In this document: positions 5,512 through 52,717 of the stretch, piece by piece | How positions within the stretch are numbered: the stretch's first letter is position 1 | Layout of the letters: every line of letters starts with the position of its first letter | Source of the DNA: Escherichia coli | GTDB lineage: Bacteria > Pseudomonadota > Gammaproteobacteria > Enterobacterales > Enterobacteriaceae | Length of the DNA: 64,000 bases | Strand: one strand, 5' to 3' | Assembly (NCBI RefSeq): GCF_003334785.1 | Contig: NZ_QOWV01000011.1 | Translations under genes and position numbers: made by a program | Notes under the pieces: model-generated | Database searches by the model: none | What the model saw: the letters and a program-made list of their open reading frames with translations, nothing else | Told to the model about the DNA's origin: nothing

Positions 5512-5592
5512 GTAGGCATGATAAGACGCGCCAGCGTCGCATCAGGCATTGTGCACAGAACGGCGGATGCGGCAAAAACGCCTTATCCGCCC
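5512..5592. repeat. REP (repetitive extragenic palindrome) pair in the ygaY-proX intergenic region
   Basis: gtaggcatgataagacgcgccagcgtcgcatcaggc and cggcggatgcggcaaaaacgccttatccgccc match the enterobacterial REP consensus family. Confidence 0.75.
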
Positions 5593-6651: not shown

Positions 6652-7716
6652 TTACTTAATGAATGGGCGGGTCAGCAGACCAACAGGGCCAGTGGTGTAC
6701 CAGCGACGGTTGCCGCGACTGCGTGAGTCGCGCCCAACGGCCTGCGTCAGACGATCGAGGATAATGGCGAGGATCACAATCCCGACGCCGCCAACGGTGG
6801 CAAGCCCCATATCCAGACGACCGATACCGCGAAGTACCATCTGACCCAACCCGCCGACGGCAATCATCGAGGCGATGACCACCATAGAAAGGGCCAGCAT
6901 CAGCGTCTGGTTAACGCCCGCCATAATGGTCGGCATCGCCAGCGGTAACTGAACTTTGAACAGCATCTGGCGCGGGCTGGCACCGAATGAGCGCGAGGCT
7001 TCAATCAGATCCGCCGGAACCTGGTTAATCCCCAGAATGGTCAGACGGATAATCGGCGGCAGAGCAAAGATGATCGTCACCACCACGCCCGGCACGTTAC
7101 CGATACCAAATAGCATGACGATTGGCACCAGATAAACAAACGCTGGCGTGGTCTGCATGGCATCAAGCAGTGGACGAATAATTTTCGCCGCTCGCGGACT
7201 TCTCGCCAGCCATATCCCCAACGGCAAACCGATGACGATACAGAACAGCAGGGCGGTTAACACCAGCGCCAGAGTCACCATTGCCTGCGACCAGGCACCG
7301 ATTGCGCCGATGGCAATCAGCGAAACCAGCGTCGCCACACCCATTCCGACCCCGGAAATCTGCCAGGCGATGAGAGCGAAAACGATAATCGCCACCGGTG
7401 CGGGCATACCCAGCAGCAATTGCTGGAAACCGTTGAGGATATAATCAACCGGAACGCGCACGCCCTGGAAGACGGGACGGAAATGGGTAACGACCCAGTC
7501 GATCCCTTCAGTGACCCAACTGTCGAGCGGGATCAGCGTTTTATGGAACGGATCGAGAATATTAAAATGCTCGACGTTTGGCGCAGGCGTACTGGTCAGC
7601 CAGTCAGCACCACCGCCGTCAGTCGGTGCAGTCGTCGGTGTACCCCAGGCGTCTGCGGATTGCGCGGCACTGTCCGCCGCTGGCGTGGTATCCCACGGAT
7701 TATTTTGATCAGCCAT
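6652..7716 (-). CDS. proW: Glycine betaine/proline ABC transporter permease ProW
   Basis: 354-aa [22 protein letters not shown]...; matches ProW; overlaps proV stop by 8 nt. Confidence 0.93.
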
Positions 7717-8911
7717 TATTTACCCCCTCACGATCTAAAGCGCGCAGCAGCATTCCTTTCGAAATGATGCCGACATACTGTTGGTCCTCGTCGACCACGG
7801 GCACCGCACAGGGTGCCTGTCCGACATGAGAGAGCAACTCGCTAAGAGGCGTTTGTGCATCGACTGCTAACGGCGCATCAATCAGCGCCGCATCAAGACC
7901 TTGCTGCTGCGTTAACGCGGTTTTAAGCGAATCGATGGAGACTGCGCCGACAAACTTATTACCGCGTTCGATAACGTAGCCATATTCGCGATCTTCATCC
8001 TGCAATAATTTCAGTGCCGAACGTGGGCCGAAGCCAGGGGTTTTACGAATTAAGCCATTCGGTGTCCGGCGGGCAATATCTTTCGCACTGAATACCTGAC
8101 TAATATCAACGCCACGGAAGAAGGTACGGACATAATCATTCGCCGGATTATTGAGAATTTCATCCGGTGTGCCGACCTGTACCACTTCACCATTTTGCAT
8201 AATGGCAATTCGGTCGCCAATACGCATGGCTTCATCAAGATCGTGGGAAATAAAGACAATGGTGCGCTGATGTTTCGCCTGTAATTTTACCAGCTCATCC
8301 TGCATCTCGGTGCGAATTAATGGATCGAGCGCCGAGAAGGCTTCGTCCATTAATAATATATCCGGATTAATCGCTAACGCGCGGGCTAATCCCACACGTT
8401 GACGCATCCCGCCAGAGAGTTCATCCGGGTAGCTGTGGGCATAATTTTCCAGCCCGACCTGACGCAGTGCATCAAGGGCTTTTTCCCGGCGTTCTTCGGC
8501 ATTAATTCCGGCCAATTCCATACCGAACGCAGTATTGTCCAGCACGGTCATATGCGGCATTAAGGCAAAGGACTGGAAGACCATCGCAATCTTTTTTCTG
8601 CGCACCTCACGGAGTTCGGCGTCGGATATTTTGGCAATATCCACACCATCAATCAGCACTTGCCCGCGGGTGGGTTCAATCAGGCGATTGAGAAGGCGTA
8701 CCATTGTGGATTTACCCGAGCCGGATAATCCCATGATGACAAATATCTCGCCTTCTTCAATGGCCAGACTGGCGTCTTTTACGCCAAGCGATAGCCCAGT
8801 TTTTTCCAGAATTTGTTCTTTTGAAAGTCCTTGTTCGATATATTTGAACGCTCGCTGTGGATGCTCGCCAAATATTTTATAAAGATTTTTAATTTCTAAT
8901 TTAATTGCCAT
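7709..8911 (-). CDS. proV: Glycine betaine/proline ABC transporter ATPase ProV
   Basis: ORF track extends to 9184, but the ProV N-terminus [22 protein letters not shown] starts at ATG 8909-8911 (400 aa); Walker [10 protein letters not shown] and C-terminal CBS domains present. Confidence 0.93.
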
Positions 8912-45036: not shown

Positions 45037-47142
45037 ATGTTACGAAAAAGCAAACTTACAGAGATATATAAAAGGTTTGGTTTTACTGAAGAAAATACAG
45101 GTAACGAAAGTATTGCTGTATATTCTATTAAAACAGGGCACTACCATAACGCGGACATACTTCCACTAAATAATGAGGTTAATGTAAATCAAACCTTTGA
45201 AGAATATAGGCAGTTAGGTTATGCATGTCAAATTAAAAAATATCAGTCTTATGAAGAAGCACATAAGGAATTATTTAATGGCTTCTTTAGCGTCGATTCA
45301 ACTAAAGAAAGGTTGATTAAAGATTATAATACTTTCACAGATTCAATTGTAAAAATTCACTCACCTACTGCAACTTATTCCTACATAAATTCAAAATATT
45401 ACTTAAATGGTGTTATTGGCGAAGCTAATGTTGTTACGGAAATATTAGAGAGAATACAACATAGGCGTCCAATTCTGTTTTTGATTGAGGCTGCAGCCGG
45501 TTTTGGAAAGACTTGCACGGCGTATGAATTATTGAGGGAGATTATAGTTAACAATATAGGGAAAATACCATTATTTTCAGAACTATCAAGGAATAGGCAA
45601 GCAAAAATATTCAGGTATGTACTATTAGATGAAATTGATAGAAGTTTTCCTTTGTTAAGCTCAGCCTTAGTAAGGAATGAAATAAGAGCAGGAAATGTAC
45701 CAGTTATACTTGACGGGTTTGATGAACTATTGCATGAAAGTACAAACGGAATTGAAAATAATTATGAAAAAACAGAGCCAATGCTGGAAACAATAAGTGA
45801 GCTTCTAACTGATAGTGCAAAAGTGGTTTTGACAACTCGAAGAACAGCTATATTTGACGGAGATGAATTCCATCAGTGGATAGCATCACATCAAGAAGAT
45901 TTTGATGTGATAAGAATAAGAATTCATGAACCACAAATTGAAGACTGGCTTCCAGGTCAACGTTTAGATGAAATTTCATCGACAGGATTTCCTCTTAACA
46001 AATTATCAAACCCTGTACTGCTATCATTTCTAAGATGCATCGACGACACCGACTTTAATAAAGTTATAAGCGACCCAACAACTATAGTGAGGAAGTATTT
46101 TGATTCAATGCTTGAGCGAGAAAGAAAAAGACAAGATTTATTAATGTCTATTGAAGATCAATATACTATACTAAAAATAATAGCTGACGACATGGTCGAG
46201 GGTAACTACACATCTGAGTCTAGAGAGTATATATCGTTAGTCATAACTGAAAAGAATCAACAACTCTTGGAGGCTACAAGAAAGCTTTATACTGTAGATG
46301 AAAGACCAACTACTGACGAATTAGTTAATAAATTAGCATCGCATGCTCTATTAGATCGGTCAGGCTCAGAAAACCAAGGTATTGGATTTGTTAATGAATT
46401 TGTTCTTGGTAATTTTGTTTCTGAAAATATTATTAATGATAAGTCAAATGAATGGATTGGTGATAAACGTTTTATAGAACCAGCAGTGCAATCTTATATG
46501 CCGAGGATCGATGATGAAAAAGAATTACTTTGGCATAGCTTAGAGTTTGCTTTATATTTTATGTCAGGTAATGATAAAATCCTTTATAGTCATTTGCTTA
46601 TAGGAAAAGTTCCATTAGATTTAAAAAATGATAGTGTTGAGCAATTGTCTATATCAAAACTTTCTTTAGGCGATATAAATATAATACATGATACTATCTT
46701 TGTTGATTGTTCGTTTTTTAGCAGCATATTTACCTGTGGTAATTATAAAAACGTTACATTCGTGAACTGTTCTTTTATAGATTGTAGTTTTAACGAATTA
46801 AGTGGTAGGGAAGATATTTATTTTTTGGGATGTGAATGTGACAATGATGCTATTAATAAAAAATCTGTCGAGATAAACAGTGAAAATGATCACGATATTA
46901 CAGATTGTGATATTTACATCTTAGAGAAGTTCTGTCCCAGAGGGAGTGTTAGCTATCATAAGCATCGGCCTATAAAAGGCTTATGTTCTAACAACAATCA
47001 ATTTCAGTTAAGTGAAATACTCCATTCTTTAGATAAATTGAGGAAAGACGGTCTTTTACTTACGCCAGACAAGCGTTCGTTCCTTGAACTTAACATGGCA
47101 AGAATATCAGAGATTAAAGCAATTCTTGGGAGGAATTTCTGA
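45037..47142 (+). CDS. STAND/NACHT-type P-loop NTPase with C-terminal pentapeptide-like repeats (candidate sensor)
   Basis: ORF track 45028..47142; start at ATG 45037 with AGGAGG RBS 45024-45029. Walker A AAAGFGKT, Walker B hhhhDGFDE (VPVILDGFDELL), sensor-like VVLTTRRT; C-terminal FVDCSF...FVNCSF...FIDCSF five-residue periodicity. Confidence 0.8.
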   Translation: MLRKSKLTEIYKRFGFTEENTGNESIAVYSIKTGHYHNADILPLNNEVNVNQTFEEYRQLGYACQIKKYQSYEEAHKELFNGFFSVDSTKERLIKDYNTFTDSIVKIHSPTATYSYINSKYYLNGVIGEANVVTEILERIQHRRPILFLIEAAAGFGKTCTAYELLREIIVNNIGKIPLFSELSRNRQAKIFRYVLLDEIDRSFPLLSSALVRNEIRAGNVPVILDGFDELLHESTNGIENNYEKTEPMLETISELLTDSAKVVLTTRRTAIFDGDEFHQWIASHQEDFDVIRIRIHEPQIEDWLPGQRLDEISSTGFPLNKLSNPVLLSFLRCIDDTDFNKVISDPTTIVRKYFDSMLERERKRQDLLMSIEDQYTILKIIADDMVEGNYTSESREYISLVITEKNQQLLEATRKLYTVDERPTTDELVNKLASHALLDRSGSENQGIGFVNEFVLGNFVSENIINDKSNEWIGDKRFIEPAVQSYMPRIDDEKELLWHSLEFALYFMSGNDKILYSHLLIGKVPLDLKNDSVEQLSISKLSLGDINIIHDTIFVDCSFFSSIFTCGNYKNVTFVNCSFIDCSFNELSGREDIYFLGCECDNDAINKKSVEINSENDHDITDCDIYILEKFCPRGSVSYHKHRPIKGLCSNNNQFQLSEILHSLDKLRKDGLLLTPDKRSFLELNMARISEIKAILGRNF

Positions 47143-48047
47143 TGTATAACGGGAATGAATTGCGAATTATTCAAAGTTTGCAAAAAGATATAGAAGATGA
47201 ACTTAATCGTATTGGATTACTTTATCGTTTTTTTTCGAGGACAAAATCAGAAAGCTCAATAATTAAGAAATATGAAAAAGAGCCTAATAAATACTCAGAG
47301 GATGGTAAAAAAATTCAAGACTTATTTGGGGTTAGGATAATATTATATTTTCCTGATGATTTATTTATTGCTCAAAAAACACTGGAGAAATTATTCGAAA
47401 TTGAATCTAAAACCGTAGACGAAACCACGGCTAATCTCTTTGCGGCAACTCGATGCAATTACGTCTTTAAGTTACCAGAAGTATTATCAAATGATAGTGT
47501 CTTATTAAAGAAATATTCTTATATTGATACTACTTTTGAAGTCCAATTTAGAACTATTTTATCTGAAGGATGGCATGAAGTTGAGCATGATCTACGCTAT
47601 AAGTGCAAAGAGGATTGGGTTGAGCATAATGACCTTAGTCGCGCGCTGAATGGAATTTACGCCTCTTTGGAAACATCTGATTGGGGAATAATGAAGTTAT
47701 TTGAGGATTTAGCATATAGAAATTATAAGTCAAGCGCATGGTCCGCTATGCTAAGAAATAAATTAAGATTGAGAATGGACGATAAGCTTGATGAAAAGAT
47801 AATTTCAATAATTAATGAGAAAGAGCTTGGTAAAAAGTTTTATAGAATTGACAGAGATCGTTTGTTATCGTTAATGTTAGATTATAATATTGATATACCA
47901 ATTAATCTTAATAATATAATTTACCTTTGTAATTATTTTTTCATAAAATCTACGGAGCTTCAGGATATAGCCCCTGCTTTAATAATGAAAAAGCTTACAG
48001 ATGCTGATGAAAAATTCAATAAAAATACTATTTTAGCATCTAAATAA
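47142..48047 (+). CDS. RelA/SpoT-homologue (small alarmone synthetase / toxSAS-like) nucleotide pyrophosphokinase (candidate effector)
   Basis: 301-aa ORF; start ATG overlaps the upstream TGA (tgATGa); GGGAGG RBS. Synthetase motifs: RTKSESSIIKKYEK (Syn1-like), DLFGVRIIL (DxxGxR), EVQFRTILSEGWHEVEHDLRYK (ExQxRT...W.E..H...YK). Confidence 0.8.
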   Translation: MYNGNELRIIQSLQKDIEDELNRIGLLYRFFSRTKSESSIIKKYEKEPNKYSEDGKKIQDLFGVRIILYFPDDLFIAQKTLEKLFEIESKTVDETTANLFAATRCNYVFKLPEVLSNDSVLLKKYSYIDTTFEVQFRTILSEGWHEVEHDLRYKCKEDWVEHNDLSRALNGIYASLETSDWGIMKLFEDLAYRNYKSSAWSAMLRNKLRLRMDDKLDEKIISIINEKELGKKFYRIDRDRLLSLMLDYNIDIPINLNNIIYLCNYFFIKSTELQDIAPALIMKKLTDADEKFNKNTILASK

Positions 48048-48075
48048 TAACTATCTCCGGCTATTAAGTAGGCCT

Positions 48076-48103
48076 TGTATTTTAGGCCTACTTAAAAAGT
48101 TTC
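48076..48103 (+). terminator. Hairpin immediately after the RelA/SpoT-like gene (possible terminator)
   Basis: aagtaggcc ttgtatttta ggcctactt (9-bp stem) followed by aaaaagttt; U-tract weak. Confidence 0.4.
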
Positions 48104-49099
48104 ATTATGTGAAGTGATGATGATAGCAAATCTGCTATCTTTATGGTTGGATGCGAGAAAATATTTTTATCCCGACACAACAACTGGTAATGATAGAAAA
48201 TTTAAACCCAAAAATGCTACAGTAGCCTCAGCTCACAAACGGAGTATAAAGTGGCGGTTACTCTTTAGTGGGAATACTGTAGATAGTTGATAAACTGGGC
48301 TGGATTTTCTTTTCTAACCGAAGGGAAGAAAAGCAAGGGGAACCCAAAGAAACAAGCGCAGCGGCTTCGTAGGGTTAGCCCTTGCTTCTTTTATAATTGG
48401 CATTATTCATTCAAGAACAATAGGATCTTCGCTTGTACAAGCGAAGCTATAATAAAAAATCAATTAATTATTTTAAAAGTATTAAGCAAGAGCCTATTGA
48501 CATTCGTAAAATAAAAGTTATTTTTAATGTATGCCATAAATAAAAAGTTTTATGTCATATGTATCCTGCACTATGTGCAGTTAATGTGCCACTTGTCCCA
48601 TATATGGGAATATTGGAAAGGTTACTTTGTTTTGAAGTAGCCTTTCGTCCTTCAATATTCACGATTACTTATTGCTATTACCAAGTCCAGTCGAATCGAA
48701 GAACATCTTTTATCTGAAACGACTCCTAATACCAGGTTGAAGCCACAATATCTCTCGCATAAGTAGACCAAAGAAAAATTATGATATTAACTATGTGATT
48801 TTTTTTAGTGTTAAGTTGAATAATTATATACTGGAGAGTTTTCTGTACACTACCAATTGCTGGTTCATCTGTTCTGCCGCTGATGTTTCTGACTAATCTC
48901 CCGGTGACACAGAACTGTCCCTCTCTACCAGCCTTTATTCGACTCAATGTCCGGCTGCTGATACGCAGTTATCCCTTCGTATCAATGACTGACTCTTAAA
49001 CGCAATGCTTTGGTTGCTGGCGTATCTGACAGCTTCTTCGGCGTGAAGGTCGTTGTGTAAGTATACTTCTTGGTTTATTTAGGCTATATAAAACCATGA

Positions 49100-49996
49100 C
49101 TATGACTGGCTGTTTTCAGTAAGAGTCTTATCATCCAAAGAATTTATTCTAGAAATTCTTTTTAACTCATTAAGATAATCAACCTCGTTTTCTAAGAACC
49201 AATGAAGAACTTTAGAGTTGCCAAGTAATTTATTAATATATGACTGGATTATAACGAATTTCAACATATCTGAACCATACTCGGTTTGAAGTTTTTTCGT
49301 TTCTTCCGAAGTTGTTGCCATTTCTTGTTCCAGACGAAGTATGGTTTTTTTTATGTCCTTTTTATAGGGAGTGTTTTTCCCTTTATTTACTATCATCGAT
49401 GACGGTGTTGCATCCAAGATGCTCATTGCAAATTTTTTACTATAATTATCAAAATTAATCATTGTACCGACTGCTTCAATTTGACGAATTGGCTTCATTT
49501 TCCTCAAAACGTCAAATGTAGCCTTAGGTATAGGTTTATCAGAAAGTTTCGCAATTACACTTGGATCTATGCCGTTCATCACATTAGCTTTATCTTTTAT
49601 GGCATCAACAGATATGCCCAAAGCAGCACTAAGTTTTTCAATTGATACTTTTGCCAGAGACTTAATTATCATTCTATGTTCTTCAACTACATTTATATGA
49701 TTCACTTGTTTGTTAGGAGTGAAAGCATCATCTATGCTCGAAAGTATACATGGAGCTTTTTCTATATCTAAGTCTTTTAAAGCCTCAACCCTTAAATGGC
49801 CATCAAGTATCTTAGTGACATCTTTATCTTTGTCATAGAATACTATTATTGGTTCAATAATACCCAAGCTTTCGATAGAGGTAACTATTTGATGATATTT
49901 ATGGCTTCGCTTTACGTTTTCTAATAATTCCTTAGATGGAATTAACTTATTAGTTTCCAGGTAAATAAAATTTTTGCCAAAACGTATCTGAATCAT
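49100..49996 (-). CDS. ParB/Srx-domain protein 2 (ParB-like DNA-binding/nuclease fold)
   Basis: 298-aa ORF with ILDGHLRVEAL motif (ParB-box-like DGxxR) and HTH-like LSAALGISVDAIK; start overlaps stop of upstream paralogue (ATGA). Confidence 0.65.
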   Translation of the reverse strand: MIQIRFGKNFIYLETNKLIPSKELLENVKRSHKYHQIVTSIESLGIIEPIIVFYDKDKDVTKILDGHLRVEALKDLDIEKAPCILSSIDDAFTPNKQVNHINVVEEHRMIIKSLAKVSIEKLSAALGISVDAIKDKANVMNGIDPSVIAKLSDKPIPKATFDVLRKMKPIRQIEAVGTMINFDNYSKKFAMSILDATPSSMIVNKGKNTPYKKDIKKTILRLEQEMATTSEETKKLQTEYGSDMLKFVIIQSYINKLLGNSKVLHWFLENEVDYLNELKRISRINSLDDKTLTENSQS

Positions 49997-50889
49997 TTTG
50001 ATACCTCTTTGTTTACTGGGTTTAATATCTGAGATGGTAGTTCTGAAAGATTCTCTTGTTCAAGTATATTTTGAAAGCTTTTATTCATCATTATGATGTT
50101 AAAAATCTCATTTATTATTAGTAGATTGGTTTTTATAAATTTCGAGTTGTTATAAACAGATTTATGTTCAGCGATACTATTTTCATAAAGCTCAATCAAC
50201 TCCTCTGCAGTCATCCTTTTTGATGGTTTGTGATAATAAAATCCGGCTGCTTTTGCACCTTTATTCCCAACTGTTCTTTGATTTAGAATGTATTTTATCT
50301 TTATAATGTCCCGACTTTTTATTAATTTTTTATCATATGCTTCGGTAAGAATATCTTGTGCTTCCTCAGTTTCACATCTTGCAAATTGCACTGCGAGATA
50401 CAGAGGCAAATTACCCCGTTCGACTGCTGAGAGAAGTTTATGCTCTCCCTTATCAAGAAGCATATTAATACTGCTCACCCAGTTCGATGAATATCCAGTA
50501 ATCTCACTTATTTCGGAGTCTGAAAGTCCTCTGATTTTCATGTCTTTAATCACCTGTAATAACTCATTAGAACGTGGTCTTCTCCTTGCAATGTTTTCAA
50601 CTAAACTCATAACGTAAGCATCTTCTTCTGATACATCTCTTATAATTGCTGGAATAATAGTTTCACCTAATGCAACAAGAGCCTCTATTCTCCCTTGACC
50701 ACAAATTAAAGCATATTTGAAATCGTCTTCATCAATAGCTCTTACGCTTATAGGCTTGCTTAATCCTCTTTTTTTTATGCTTTCCTTTATTTCTTCATGC
50801 ACTACCTTATTTCTTGTTCGTGGGTTAAGAAATTTTATTTTTGCAATCTCAATTTGAATTATTGGGAATTCATTTTTTTCAGGCAGCAT
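49993..50889 (-). CDS. ParB/Srx-domain protein 1
   Basis: 298-aa ORF with LICGQGRIEAL motif and ...LVENIARRRP...; overlaps serine recombinase stop by 11 nt. Confidence 0.65.
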   Translation of the reverse strand: MLPEKNEFPIIQIEIAKIKFLNPRTRNKVVHEEIKESIKKRGLSKPISVRAIDEDDFKYALICGQGRIEALVALGETIIPAIIRDVSEEDAYVMSLVENIARRRPRSNELLQVIKDMKIRGLSDSEISEITGYSSNWVSSINMLLDKGEHKLLSAVERGNLPLYLAVQFARCETEEAQDILTEAYDKKLIKSRDIIKIKYILNQRTVGNKGAKAAGFYYHKPSKRMTAEELIELYENSIAEHKSVYNNSKFIKTNLLIINEIFNIIMMNKSFQNILEQENLSELPSQILNPVNKEVSK

Positions 50890-52435
50890 ATAGTTCCCTC
50901 ACTTTCATGCGAGTAATAATTTGTAGAAATTTATCAAGATTATCAAATCTATAGAGATCTAACCGAATGTTGTTTGTTTCCATCATACACATTTTACTAT
51001 ATTCGTTTTCAATCTTTGGTATGATATAAAAATCAAGAGGTGAAATATTTTGTGAATTCATTCGTATAACAATTGTTATGTCTGCTTTCTGTGAGTTATC
51101 AAACCGGACTTTCCATCTAAGTTTACCTGATTTCATATGTATGCATTTAGTAACAAGGACGGAAATTAAAAACTCATCATTGATGTAAAGCATTGGGTAA
51201 TATTTATACTCGTCTATATGACAGTTACTTTTTAATATTTCGCCCTTAAAATCCTCAATTATCTCTGAGTAAAATGATCTTAGTGCTTCATTTATTTGGA
51301 GATAGCTGTAATCATGTTCTGGCTTATAACCAATCAAAGTATATGCTCTTAAAAGACCACCAAATCGGGTTCTATAAACAGAAGATGAAGGGCCTGTATC
51401 ATCTTCATCAATGATAAAGCCTGATAGTTTTCCATTAGATTCTAATTTTTCTTTTAGCTTTTCTAATAGATCTTCATTAGTCAAATGAATGGATCGGAGC
51501 TGAATTATTTCTTGAGCTTTATTATATTTTTTCTTTGAAATAATTGGTTTATATGCCTTGTCACATCTAATCCATTCATGTTTGGGGTTTTTTACAAGCT
51601 TACTTTTTAGTTTAGATGAGGTTTTGTTATATATGTTGTTTCCAATATATTTTTCATTTGTCAAAATTTGATGTATTTTTGCACGAGTCCATGATGTTCC
51701 ATTTTCTGCAGGTATGCTCTGTTCATTTAATCTCTCAGCAATAATGAATTCTGGGACGTTACTATCTATAAAGAGATCATAGATTCTATTTACAATTTTT
51801 ATTTCATTTTTTGGTCCCGGAATTAATATTACCCTATCTGTTTGAATACTCTTTCTTTTGCGGAAATTCAATATTTCTTTAGCTATGCCATTTTCGTCTA
51901 CTAAAAGACGTCTCAGCCCATAACCAGCCATACCGCCTTGATGATAACCAAGCTTTATTAAATTTACTTGCCCTATAAATACCTTTTCAGATAGATTCCT
52001 GCTGTGATATGCAGCACTTGATCTTTTTATATTCAGTATAACAGAGGACTCTAAAGGGAAATCTTTAGTGGGTATAGGTTCGGAACAATATATAAGATCT
52101 ACACCATTTCTTTCAAATAGAAAGGAATAATATGCAGCTTCATCACTATTTTGAAAACGACCAAAACGGCTCACATCATAAAATAATACAGCCTGTATAT
52201 CTATTTTCTTTTGTTCTACATCGCTAAGTAACTGCTGCAAAGAATGCCTGCCTACGATACTGACTCCGCTCTTACCTGCATCATCGTAGGTATAAGCGAT
52301 TTCCATATTGTTCTTTTCAGCATAATCTTTGATATATTCAGACTGATTATGTAAAGAATATTGCTGATGGTCGGTAGACATCCTCAAGTACTGTGCGACC
52401 CTAACTCTATGATTTTTTTCATTTCCGCTAGCCAT
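50879..52435 (-). CDS. Large serine recombinase (resolvase/invertase catalytic domain plus recombinase domain)
   Basis: ORF track 50879..52441 (TTG); ATG at 52433-52435 with GAGG RBS. N-terminal YLRMSTDHQ catalytic-serine motif, ~518 aa. Confidence 0.8.
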   Translation of the reverse strand: MASGNEKNHRVRVAQYLRMSTDHQQYSLHNQSEYIKDYAEKNNMEIAYTYDDAGKSGVSIVGRHSLQQLLSDVEQKKIDIQAVLFYDVSRFGRFQNSDEAAYYSFLFERNGVDLIYCSEPIPTKDFPLESSVILNIKRSSAAYHSRNLSEKVFIGQVNLIKLGYHQGGMAGYGLRRLLVDENGIAKEILNFRKRKSIQTDRVILIPGPKNEIKIVNRIYDLFIDSNVPEFIIAERLNEQSIPAENGTSWTRAKIHQILTNEKYIGNNIYNKTSSKLKSKLVKNPKHEWIRCDKAYKPIISKKKYNKAQEIIQLRSIHLTNEDLLEKLKEKLESNGKLSGFIIDEDDTGPSSSVYRTRFGGLLRAYTLIGYKPEHDYSYLQINEALRSFYSEIIEDFKGEILKSNCHIDEYKYYPMLYINDEFLISVLVTKCIHMKSGKLRWKVRFDNSQKADITIVIRMNSQNISPLDFYIIPKIENEYSKMCMMETNNIRLDLYRFDNLDKFLQIITRMKVRELYAA

Positions 52436-52717
52436 GCACAAAACCTCATGGATGATTCAATACAATGTAGAGGATAAAATTGATCAAATTTTAACCGAAT
52501 TCAACTGTTTTATCATTGATTAGAGCGAATTTGGTAGTTCTTCGAGGTGTATGATAATCGAGAAGAGATGTGAATTATTTAGCTGATATGACCGACAGCT
52601 TTCGTTATGTGGCCTCAAGGTACCCATTTGTAAATGGCTATGCTTAGTCCACATAGGTTAATGGTGTGATCATTAATTCTTCAAATAAATCAAGATAGTT
52701 AACCCATCATGGAAGAG

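Follow-up and report, generated by a model that had tools for sequence, protein, structure and literature searches.

In the IncQ-1 plasmids R1162/RSF1010, the nick at the origin of transfer (oriT) falls in a short conserved core preceded by an inverted repeat, and MobC is the accessory protein. In R1162 the nick lies 8 nt past the repeat. A putative oriT region of 12 bp, TTACACCTTGCT, is common to all 29 IncQ-3 plasmids, pKPSH70 and pGNB2 among them; it was assigned by homology to the oriTs described by Loftie-Eaton and Rawlings in 2012 (Piotrowska et al. 2020, PMC7557826). According to a 2026 preprint, the usual place of an oriT is upstream of the relaxase gene, and in integrative elements defence systems are clustered next to oriT (10.64898/2026.01.13.699239). 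The present analysis concerns a 64,000-nt stretch of the Escherichia coli chromosome (contig NZ_QOWV01000011.1 of assembly GCF_003334785.1), referred to below as the window. At positions 48304-48389 it contains an 86-nt two-hairpin element which, judged by its sequence, is the oriT of a genomic island with a probability of roughly 0.7.

The island is about 20 kb long and lies beside the tmRNA gene ssrA (54114-54476). Read from ssrA, it carries a tyrosine integrase gene (int), a large serine recombinase gene, two ParB-like genes and a gap at 48048-49099, followed by RelA/SpoT-like and NACHT genes, DUF4928 remnants, an ankyrin-repeat gene, a small (mobC-like) gene and a relaxase gene. The island looks like an integrative mobilizable element since it encodes a relaxase and no mating-pore genes are in view on it. 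The gap itself was confirmed: a RelA/SpoT-like open reading frame (ORF) at 47142-48047 (+ strand) and a ParB-like ORF at 49100-49996 (- strand) converge on it. The original prediction, made from the sequence of the window, had called the gap noncoding, and this holds. The longest ORFs in it encode 73-75 amino acids from TTG starts, the remainder are short with TTG or GTG starts, and RefSeq annotates nothing there except an IS3 pseudogene across hundreds of genomes. Small ORFs in 48527-48717 were rejected as coding sequences because their frames are not kept in relatives, where indels break them (alignments read by eye).

The two-hairpin element and its conservation

At least 80% of the gap is covered in only 78 complete E. 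coli genomes. About 500 further E. coli genomes share only the part from about 48307 to 49099 (96.6% identity) and carry other cargo at the left, such as the type I restriction-modification system of AR437. Since these genomes share the backbone but carry other cargo, the gap is, by sequence comparison, a mosaic in which 48048-48305 is the tail of the NACHT/RelA-SpoT cargo and 48306-49099 is island backbone. The gap is the junction of swappable defence cargo with the conserved backbone of an ssrA-inserted integrative mobilizable island rather than a decayed wasteland. Its most conserved feature, which the original prediction did not mention, is the element at 48304-48389; the palindromes named in that prediction are not the main feature. 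The parts of the element are as follows.

48304-48389, + strand: conserved 86-nt two-hairpin element, candidate oriT (covariance model R1, 94.9 bits, single copy in the window)
48309-48333, + strand: hairpin A, with the covarying stem CTTTTCT/AGAAAAG and a loop holding AACCGAAGGG
48334-48385, + strand: hairpin B, with the lower stem CAAGGG/CCCTTG and the middle stem AACCC/GGGTT; its top varies among relatives yet always pairs
48375-48386, + strand: 12-mer TTAGCCCTTGCT, the presumed nick region, directly 3' of the inverted repeat and matching the putative IncQ-3 oriT core at 10 of 12 bases

In a sensitive BLAST search of 48300-48720 against E. coli, many genomes shared just the segment from about 48305 to 48399, with 75-91% identity, and in the divergent copies (judged by eye) both hairpins are kept while the stem bases change. 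The same segment, 48300-48720, gave no match among 72,556 plasmid records or among phages. A species-wide scan, in which one genome per bacterial species was searched with the pattern AACCRAAGGG-N30-60-GTTAGCCCTTGC, returned 33 loci. Apart from one apparent chance match, all of these belong to Enterobacterales or to unplaced metagenome bins that carry the same mobilization (mob) genes. The genera include Citrobacter, Klebsiella, Enterobacter, Salmonella, Pantoea, Erwinia, Pectobacterium, Brenneria, Serratia, Kosakonia, Buttiauxella, Tatumella and Morganella. Copies found independently of the pattern, that is by BLAST in E. coli, as a second copy in one E. coli strain and in five loci chosen by their relaxase, confirm the architecture, and some of them vary inside the motifs of the pattern. 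The 12-mer TTAGCCCTTGCT is the best-conserved part of the element.

The model identified 37 copies in related loci, and five more were found in loci chosen by relaxase protein. In the covarying stem of hairpin A, one pair is C-G or U-A in 12 sequences each and another is C-G in 23 and U-A in 5. The tops of hairpin B differ in both length and sequence (AACTGAGC/GCTCAGTT, AACTCAGC/GCTGAGTT and AACTTA..TAAGTT). In a plain MAFFT alignment, which was not fitted to the model, 88.7% of cells pair, compared with 42-63% when the partners are slid by one to three columns, and eight pairs are changed on both sides, compared with zero to three in the slid controls. The model-fitted alignment is 89.6% paired with 10 pairs changed on both sides, which was matched by none of 500 shuffles. 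RNAalifold gave another pairing on the MAFFT alignment (loop AAGGG with CCCTT), which was dropped as a one-column misregister. Nine copies folded alone as single-stranded DNA adopt the same two-hairpin shape, and eight relatives fold with z = -3.3 to -5.7.

With the covariance model, exactly one copy is detected in the window, and none upstream of the window's own mob operon. E. coli MB06022 (locus L016) carries two copies 1.2 kb apart, at 7011-7080 and 8303-8379. The latter is a divergent, independent variant at the usual position upstream of the mobC-like gene, and the pair suggests tandem or composite islands. The islands with the same element in loci L013, L012 and L016 adjoin ygbA/fhlA instead of ssrA. 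In L013 the distance from ygbA to a gap-like backbone, which matches 48306-48802, is about 360 bp, and the fetched DNA holds no integrase.

Position relative to the mob genes and a model for transfer

The presumed partners of the element are two genes at the far end of the island.

41329-41733, - strand: mobC-like gene for a relaxosome accessory protein, partner of the element (42% identity to pKPSH70 MobC, E = 9e-22; weak NikA-like Pfam match)
40100-41329, - strand: relaxase gene with a MobA/VirD2-like nuclease domain (Pfam PF03432, E = 3.5e-22; 43% identity to IncQ-3 relaxases)

The RefSeq coordinates taken from a near-identical genome, 40064-41329, overrun the relaxase ORF, which in the window reaches its first stop at about 40100 (409 amino acids). 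The protein holds a (PV)6 repeat.

The mobC-like/relaxase pair was present within the fetched DNA in 23 loci of the species-wide scan, and the E. coli loci agree. The pair is always on the hairpin A side, it faces away from the element and its orientation is constant. The distance from the element to the mobC-like start codon is 115-200 bp in most loci, while the window and a few other loci have 2.6-6.6 kb of defence cargo between the element and the mob genes. The converse test started from nine loci picked purely by relaxase similarity among viral and prophage contigs, with a 4-kb flank, and in five of them the element was located upstream and on the strand expected. Three of the four loci that lack it encode relaxases 91-100% identical to that of the window, so a copy probably lies beyond the 4-kb flank. 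A listed plasmid with an 80% identical relaxase, OX345050.1, was set aside since it is a 3.6-kb linear contig ending before the expected position of the element.

Promoter-like sites flank the element and point outward. In 20 of the 42 copies the predicted mob promoter has its -35 hexamer 15-32 nt outside hairpin A, and an outward-facing TTGAC[AT] occurs no more than 70 nt from hairpin B in 15 of 42, against a background of 3%. In its usual arrangement the element is therefore predicted to lie in an untranscribed spacer, and its covarying hairpins are best explained at the level of DNA. In canonical loci (e.g. L010, 4895-5000) a conserved palindrome, AAGCATA-ttcct-TATGCTT, separates the predicted mob promoter from the mobC-like start codon and looks like an operator or a hairpin of the 5' untranslated region; it is absent from 41734-41934, the region upstream of the mob genes in the window.

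DNA hairpins with compensatory changes in predicted untranscribed DNA would also suit a single-strand signal, either an ssi priming site or a single-strand promoter, that acts in the recipient while the true oriT lies elsewhere. Leading regions of plasmids such as F and ColIb-P9 carry signals of this type, and the element adjoins the presumed leading region of the island. Against this, the 12-mer and the whole layout match the proposed IncQ-3 oriT, and no other conserved noncoding element accompanies the mob operon in the loci examined. A single-strand signal in place of an oriT is thus decidedly improbable.

Several observations weigh against the assignment as oriT. The element of the window is 6.6 kb from the mob operon, though in the kept orientation; this distance does not exclude function because an oriT acts in cis. 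The invariance of AACCRAAGGG and GTTAGCCCTTGC in the species-wide loci was imposed in part by the search pattern. The window copy folds more weakly than its relatives (z = -1.9 for the + strand and -2.5 for the - strand) and has one A-C mismatch. The tail of hairpin B is T-rich in the window and could serve there as a terminator as well. The nick motif of RP4 type, ATCCTG, is absent near the element and upstream of mobC in related plasmids. Lastly, the IncQ-3 12-mer is itself called putative, having been inferred by homology (PMC7557826). As to the terminator, the tail is TTCTTTTAT in the window and ATATTAAC, TGCTGATAG or TAATAAAT in relatives, so that a T-rich tail is not kept, and the usual loci have no upstream gene on the same strand that an intrinsic terminator could end.

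The comparisons support the assignment of 48304-48389 as the oriT of the island on four counts: the element is conserved, its hairpins covary, its position and orientation with respect to the mob genes are fixed, and it is homologous to the IncQ-3 oriT region. From these we infer which strand is nicked, where it is nicked and that transfer takes place. Once the island is excised, its relaxase and the MobC-like partner would assemble on the element. The + strand would be the transferred strand, because the inverted repeat is 5' of the core on that strand, as in R1162; hairpin A, with its ACCGAAGGG loop, and the inverted repeat of hairpin B both precede the 12-mer. The relaxase would nick in or near the 12-mer, at about 48384/48385 by analogy with R1162, and the mating pore of a helper plasmid would export the strand rightwards. 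The part that enters the recipient first would then comprise the palindrome, the block of promoter and hairpins, the ParB-ParB-recombinase genes and int; the mob genes would come last, after which the hairpin would re-form on the incoming strand and allow the relaxase to close the circle. Under this strand assignment, the ParB-ParB-recombinase-int genes would occupy the leading region and be transcribed towards oriT, which is the usual orientation of leading-region genes. The model agrees with the reported clustering of defence systems beside oriT (10.64898/2026.01.13.699239).

A further role for the element may be imagined, in which it doubles as a point of cargo exchange. Relaxase-mediated recombination between the oriTs of co-resident islands or plasmids would swap the flanking defence cassettes, and the block at 48427-48646 would supply early-firing, single-strand promoter or priming signals of the leading region. 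Such a 'defence-cassette shuttle' is speculative and, on present evidence, unlikely.

If the element is an oriT, this helps to account for the defence cargo that directly flanks a single short conserved stretch. Much of the variable anti-phage arsenal of E. coli and related bacteria is found in islands at ssrA and near ygbA, and the backbone segment is matched by BLAST in about 11% of the complete E. coli genomes. An 86-nt candidate oriT and its cognate relaxase make mobilization of the island directly testable, and the sequence and structure model of the element can be used to find such islands in genomes.

The palindrome, the four-hairpin block and the rest of the gap

To the right of the element, the conserved backbone holds three further features.

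48427-48446, no strand: perfect 20-bp palindrome CTTCGCTTGT/ACAAGCGAAG, on the 3' side of the 12-mer at a distance of 41 nt, where a dimeric DNA-binding protein may bind
48497-48524, + strand: sigma-70-like promoter facing away from the element (TTGACA, 16-nt spacer, TATTTT; by sequence match)
48527-48646, + strand: four consecutive hairpins, H1 (48527-48562), H2 (48566-48580), H3 (48596-48609) and H4 (48616-48646)

The original prediction had reported a perfect 16-bp palindrome at about 48436-48451. It exists, but at 48429-48444, where it is the core of the perfect 20-bp palindrome CTTCGCTTGTACAAGCGAAG. An imperfect palindrome, CTGCACTATGTGCAG, is found at 48566-48580 just as predicted. The 20-bp palindrome is the sole palindrome of at least 20 bp in the window; first-order Markov simulations of the gap gave one of at least 20 bp in 4 of 2000 runs and one of at least 16 bp in 63 of 2000. 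It is kept in AR437, in Enterobacter sichuanensis and in an IMG/VR locus, and it has one central change in EC5654 and Salmonella diarizonae, relatives that are about 82% identical. Islands of the ET915 type have instead two direct repeats that start with the same half-site, CTTCGCTTG. In ET915 (L008) these are 43 nt long, 88% identical, located at 8137-8178 and 8241-8283, and begin with GCTTCGCTTG, the palindrome half-site. The oriT region of pKPSH70 contains AAGCGAAGCG twice. The half-site motif of ET915, the window palindrome and pKPSH70 may be a shared protein-binding motif, although the 8-mer is also common inside mob coding sequence. Although the loci are enriched in AAGCGAAG, a motif that the palindrome has in common with the oriT of pKPSH70, this motif was discarded as specific evidence because many of its copies lie inside mob coding sequence. 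The palindrome is a candidate binding site for a dimeric protein, perhaps an accessory protein of the relaxosome.

The adjacent large serine recombinase gene and two ParB-like genes raise another explanation, namely that the element is a docking or recombination site for the insertion and swapping of defence cargo, with palindromes that serve the recombinase or the ParB-like proteins. Variable cargo starts a few bases from either end of the element, and different islands have cargo on either side of it. Sharp edges of conservation are, however, expected of any functional element. Neither the element nor the palindrome is confined to loci with recombinase or ParB genes in the fetched DNA; the palindrome of L013, L037 and L040, for example, has no ParB gene in the 7-14 kb fetched. 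The palindrome is also present as a single copy in the window, so it does not resemble a ParB site of parS type. Moreover, ET915 lacks the block 48651-52717, and the boundaries of this block are free of repeats. In the one indel comparison available, between the window and ET915, the indel of about 48651-52717 has no shared sequence or repeats at its ends. A docking site is therefore very improbable, and the recombinase target site suggested by the original prediction finds no evidence, for the serine recombinase or for ParB, in the distribution of the palindrome or at the indel boundaries. The element is better read as an oriT.

The 4.07-kb block that is missing from ET915 and ET745 (ET915 L008, 8746-8749) comprises the serine recombinase gene, both ParB-like genes and 48651-49099. 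The recombinase-ParB-ParB trio may be a module that is gained or lost separately. The recombinase resembles CcrB, and PADLOC and NCBIfam made no defence-system call for the recombinase or the ParB proteins.

The TTGACA at 48497 is invariant in six relatives that are 73-97% identical. Compensatory changes in the four-hairpin block downstream of it include C-G to U-A in H2, U-A to C-G through U-G in H3 and U-G to C-G in H4; the compensatory and wobble changes are few and fit the + strand only. In ET915 and ET745 int has its 3' end immediately next to this block. It is either a small RNA of about 120 nt or a set of hairpins of the transferred single strand.

The conserved hairpins of the gap could be read more generally as small-RNA genes, one at 48304-48389 that ends at hairpin B as terminator and another of about 120 nt at 48531-48650 that is transcribed from the TTGACA site at 48497. 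The stems covary, and hairpin B followed by TTCTTTTAT scores as a terminator in the window. For 48531-48650, the -35 hexamer is invariant and the wobble pairs fit one strand. Against both, Rfam 15 gave no match on either strand of 47900-49300 at E values up to 1, and at gathering thresholds over the whole window there was no match in the gap. The interval 48304-48389 has no conserved upstream promoter, as homology breaks 3-5 nt before hairpin A; the promoter-like sites face away from it in the usual arrangement and its T-rich tail is not conserved. For 48531-48650, H4 lacks a U-tract, there are only six similar sequences and only two pairs are changed on both sides. Small-RNA genes are thus quite unlikely as an account of the conserved hairpins. 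The noncoding RNA that the original prediction had entertained finds no support for 48304-48389, which has no Rfam match and in its usual setting lies between outward promoter-like sites, and is tenable only for 48531-48650. Two Rfam matches elsewhere in the window have no relation to the gap: a REP-type element, naRNA4, at 5515-5592, and a tRNA at 27889-27961 whose anticodon is CAU and which is annotated as tRNA-Ile.

The remaining features of the gap belong to the cargo at its left end and to an insertion sequence remnant at its right end.

48048-48305, + strand: 3' tail of the NACHT + RelA/SpoT cargo module, found only where that cargo occurs
48064-48095, + strand: hairpin with a perfect 12-bp stem and an 8-nt loop, 16 nt past the RelA/SpoT stop codon, without a T-run
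48122-48149, + strand: terminator-like hairpin (seven pairs, then a T-rich tail) that may end the cargo operon
48915-49062, + strand: internal scrap of an IS3-family (ISKpn34-like) orfB, residues about 30-79, with one frameshift and two stop codons

The first of these hairpins is probably a 3'-end or stabilising hairpin. The original prediction had it right that a hairpin follows the RelA/SpoT-like gene, while the position (48076-48103) and the 9-bp stem it gave have to be corrected. The cargo itself, 45028-48047, is a two-gene operon encoding an NACHT NTPase and a RelA/SpoT-domain protein. PADLOC matched it to no system and gave only a weak match to PDC-S33, and its similarity to HalA and AbiGI is faint. 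The pair, which is also present in Enterobacter sichuanensis (L037), may be an undescribed anti-phage system.

At the right, the GC-richer stretch was correctly recognized: the GC fraction is 0.42-0.46 in 48800-49099 and about 0.30-0.34 nearby. Its reading as a gene remnant or decayed coding sequence was also sound, since 48915-49062 is a decayed internal piece of an IS3-family orfB, which explains most of the stretch. The scrap has 78% nucleotide identity to ISKpn34 over 146 bp (the nucleotide match spans 48915-49058) and 72% identity in two frames by tblastn, and RefSeq annotates an IS3 pseudogene at this position in several genomes. About 150 bp of the roughly 1.2-kb ISKpn34 element, from the N-terminal part of orfB, are left in the window; no orfA, catalytic domain or terminal repeats were found. 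No relative was found for 48651-48914 or 49063-49099.

The backbone has been cut by IS1 in some strains, at 48720 (L005 is among the truncated loci) and, in strains of the E. coli B lineage such as Nico21(DE3) (L004) and including derivatives of BL21(DE3), at 48756. Everything from the gab operon side to 48756 (or 48720) is deleted in these strains, which leaves int, the recombinase gene, the two ParB genes and 344-380 bp of the gap. The strains therefore lack the oriT-like element. These truncations show that the left part is dispensable for the host, and together with the IS3 scrap they could be taken to mean that the gap is merely decayed DNA with chance palindromes and no function. That is extremely improbable in view of the conservation of the element over many Enterobacterales genera, its compensatory changes and its fixed link to the mob genes. 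Decay is contradicted for 48304-48389 and is tenable only for 48651-48914 and 49063-49099.

Comparison with known mobilization systems

The closest plasmid relatives of the island relaxase are those of IncQ-3 plasmids such as pKPSH70, with 43% identity over 91% of the query, the query being the 272 N-terminal residues. As in the IncQ-3 systems, the MobC homologue (42% identity) and the relaxase are encoded by the same element. The plasmid core TTACACCTTGCT and the island 12-mer TTAGCCCTTGCT are identical at 10 of 12 bases, and independent island copies differ at the same two or three positions of the 12-mer. In both, an inverted repeat immediately precedes the core on the strand that does not encode the mob genes, the middle and upper stems of the island hairpin B ending in GGGTT before the core, and in both the core is partly paired with its upstream complement. 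An upstream hairpin with an identical ACCGAAGGG loop is shared by pKPSH70 and hairpin A of the island. This hairpin, further 5' in pKPSH70 and pSMBC31-5K, reads CCCCCG-ACCGAAGGGAG-CGGGGG and thus has a G/C stem, whereas the stem in the islands is T/A. The core of pKPSH70 is located 123 nt upstream of mobC on the noncoding strand; in pKPSH70, pSMBC31-5K and a Marinobacter plasmid the motif is 123-150 nt upstream of mobC, on the opposite strand and right after the inverted repeat. Plasmids and islands are therefore alike in order, strand and position relative to mobC. The island element differs in being chromosomal and integrative, in stems that are A/T-rich and not G/C-rich, and in a relaxase that is not fused to a primase. 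It lies upstream of the mobC-relaxase operon in most related loci, as in IncQ-3 plasmids, but in the window 6.6 kb of cargo has come between them.

Likeness to other systems is more limited. The oriT of R1162/RSF1010 has the same layout of inverted repeat, core and MobC accessory, but its core is TAAGTGCGCCCT and its relaxase is of another Pfam family (MobA_MobL). With the oriTs of RP4 and R64 (MOBP) the element shares its position between outward-facing promoter-like sites. MOB-suite types the related plasmid relaxases as MOBP, and the accessory protein has a weak NikA-like match. Two other groups of islands were considered and set aside as having different mobilization systems: PIME islands, with an IncP-like oriT and TraJ, and ROD21-like islands, with a MobA/MobL relaxase. 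A text search of the literature for the 12-mers returned only unrelated primers, and no prior description of the island element sequence was found; recent large-scale catalogues of candidate oriTs may already include it. The element may be regarded as a chromosomal-island oriT homologous to that of the IncQ-3 plasmids. It is of a familiar kind and introduces no new principle, but it is useful for understanding how the islands spread, and it connects a family of chromosomal islands with the way in which the small IncQ-3 resistance plasmids are mobilized.

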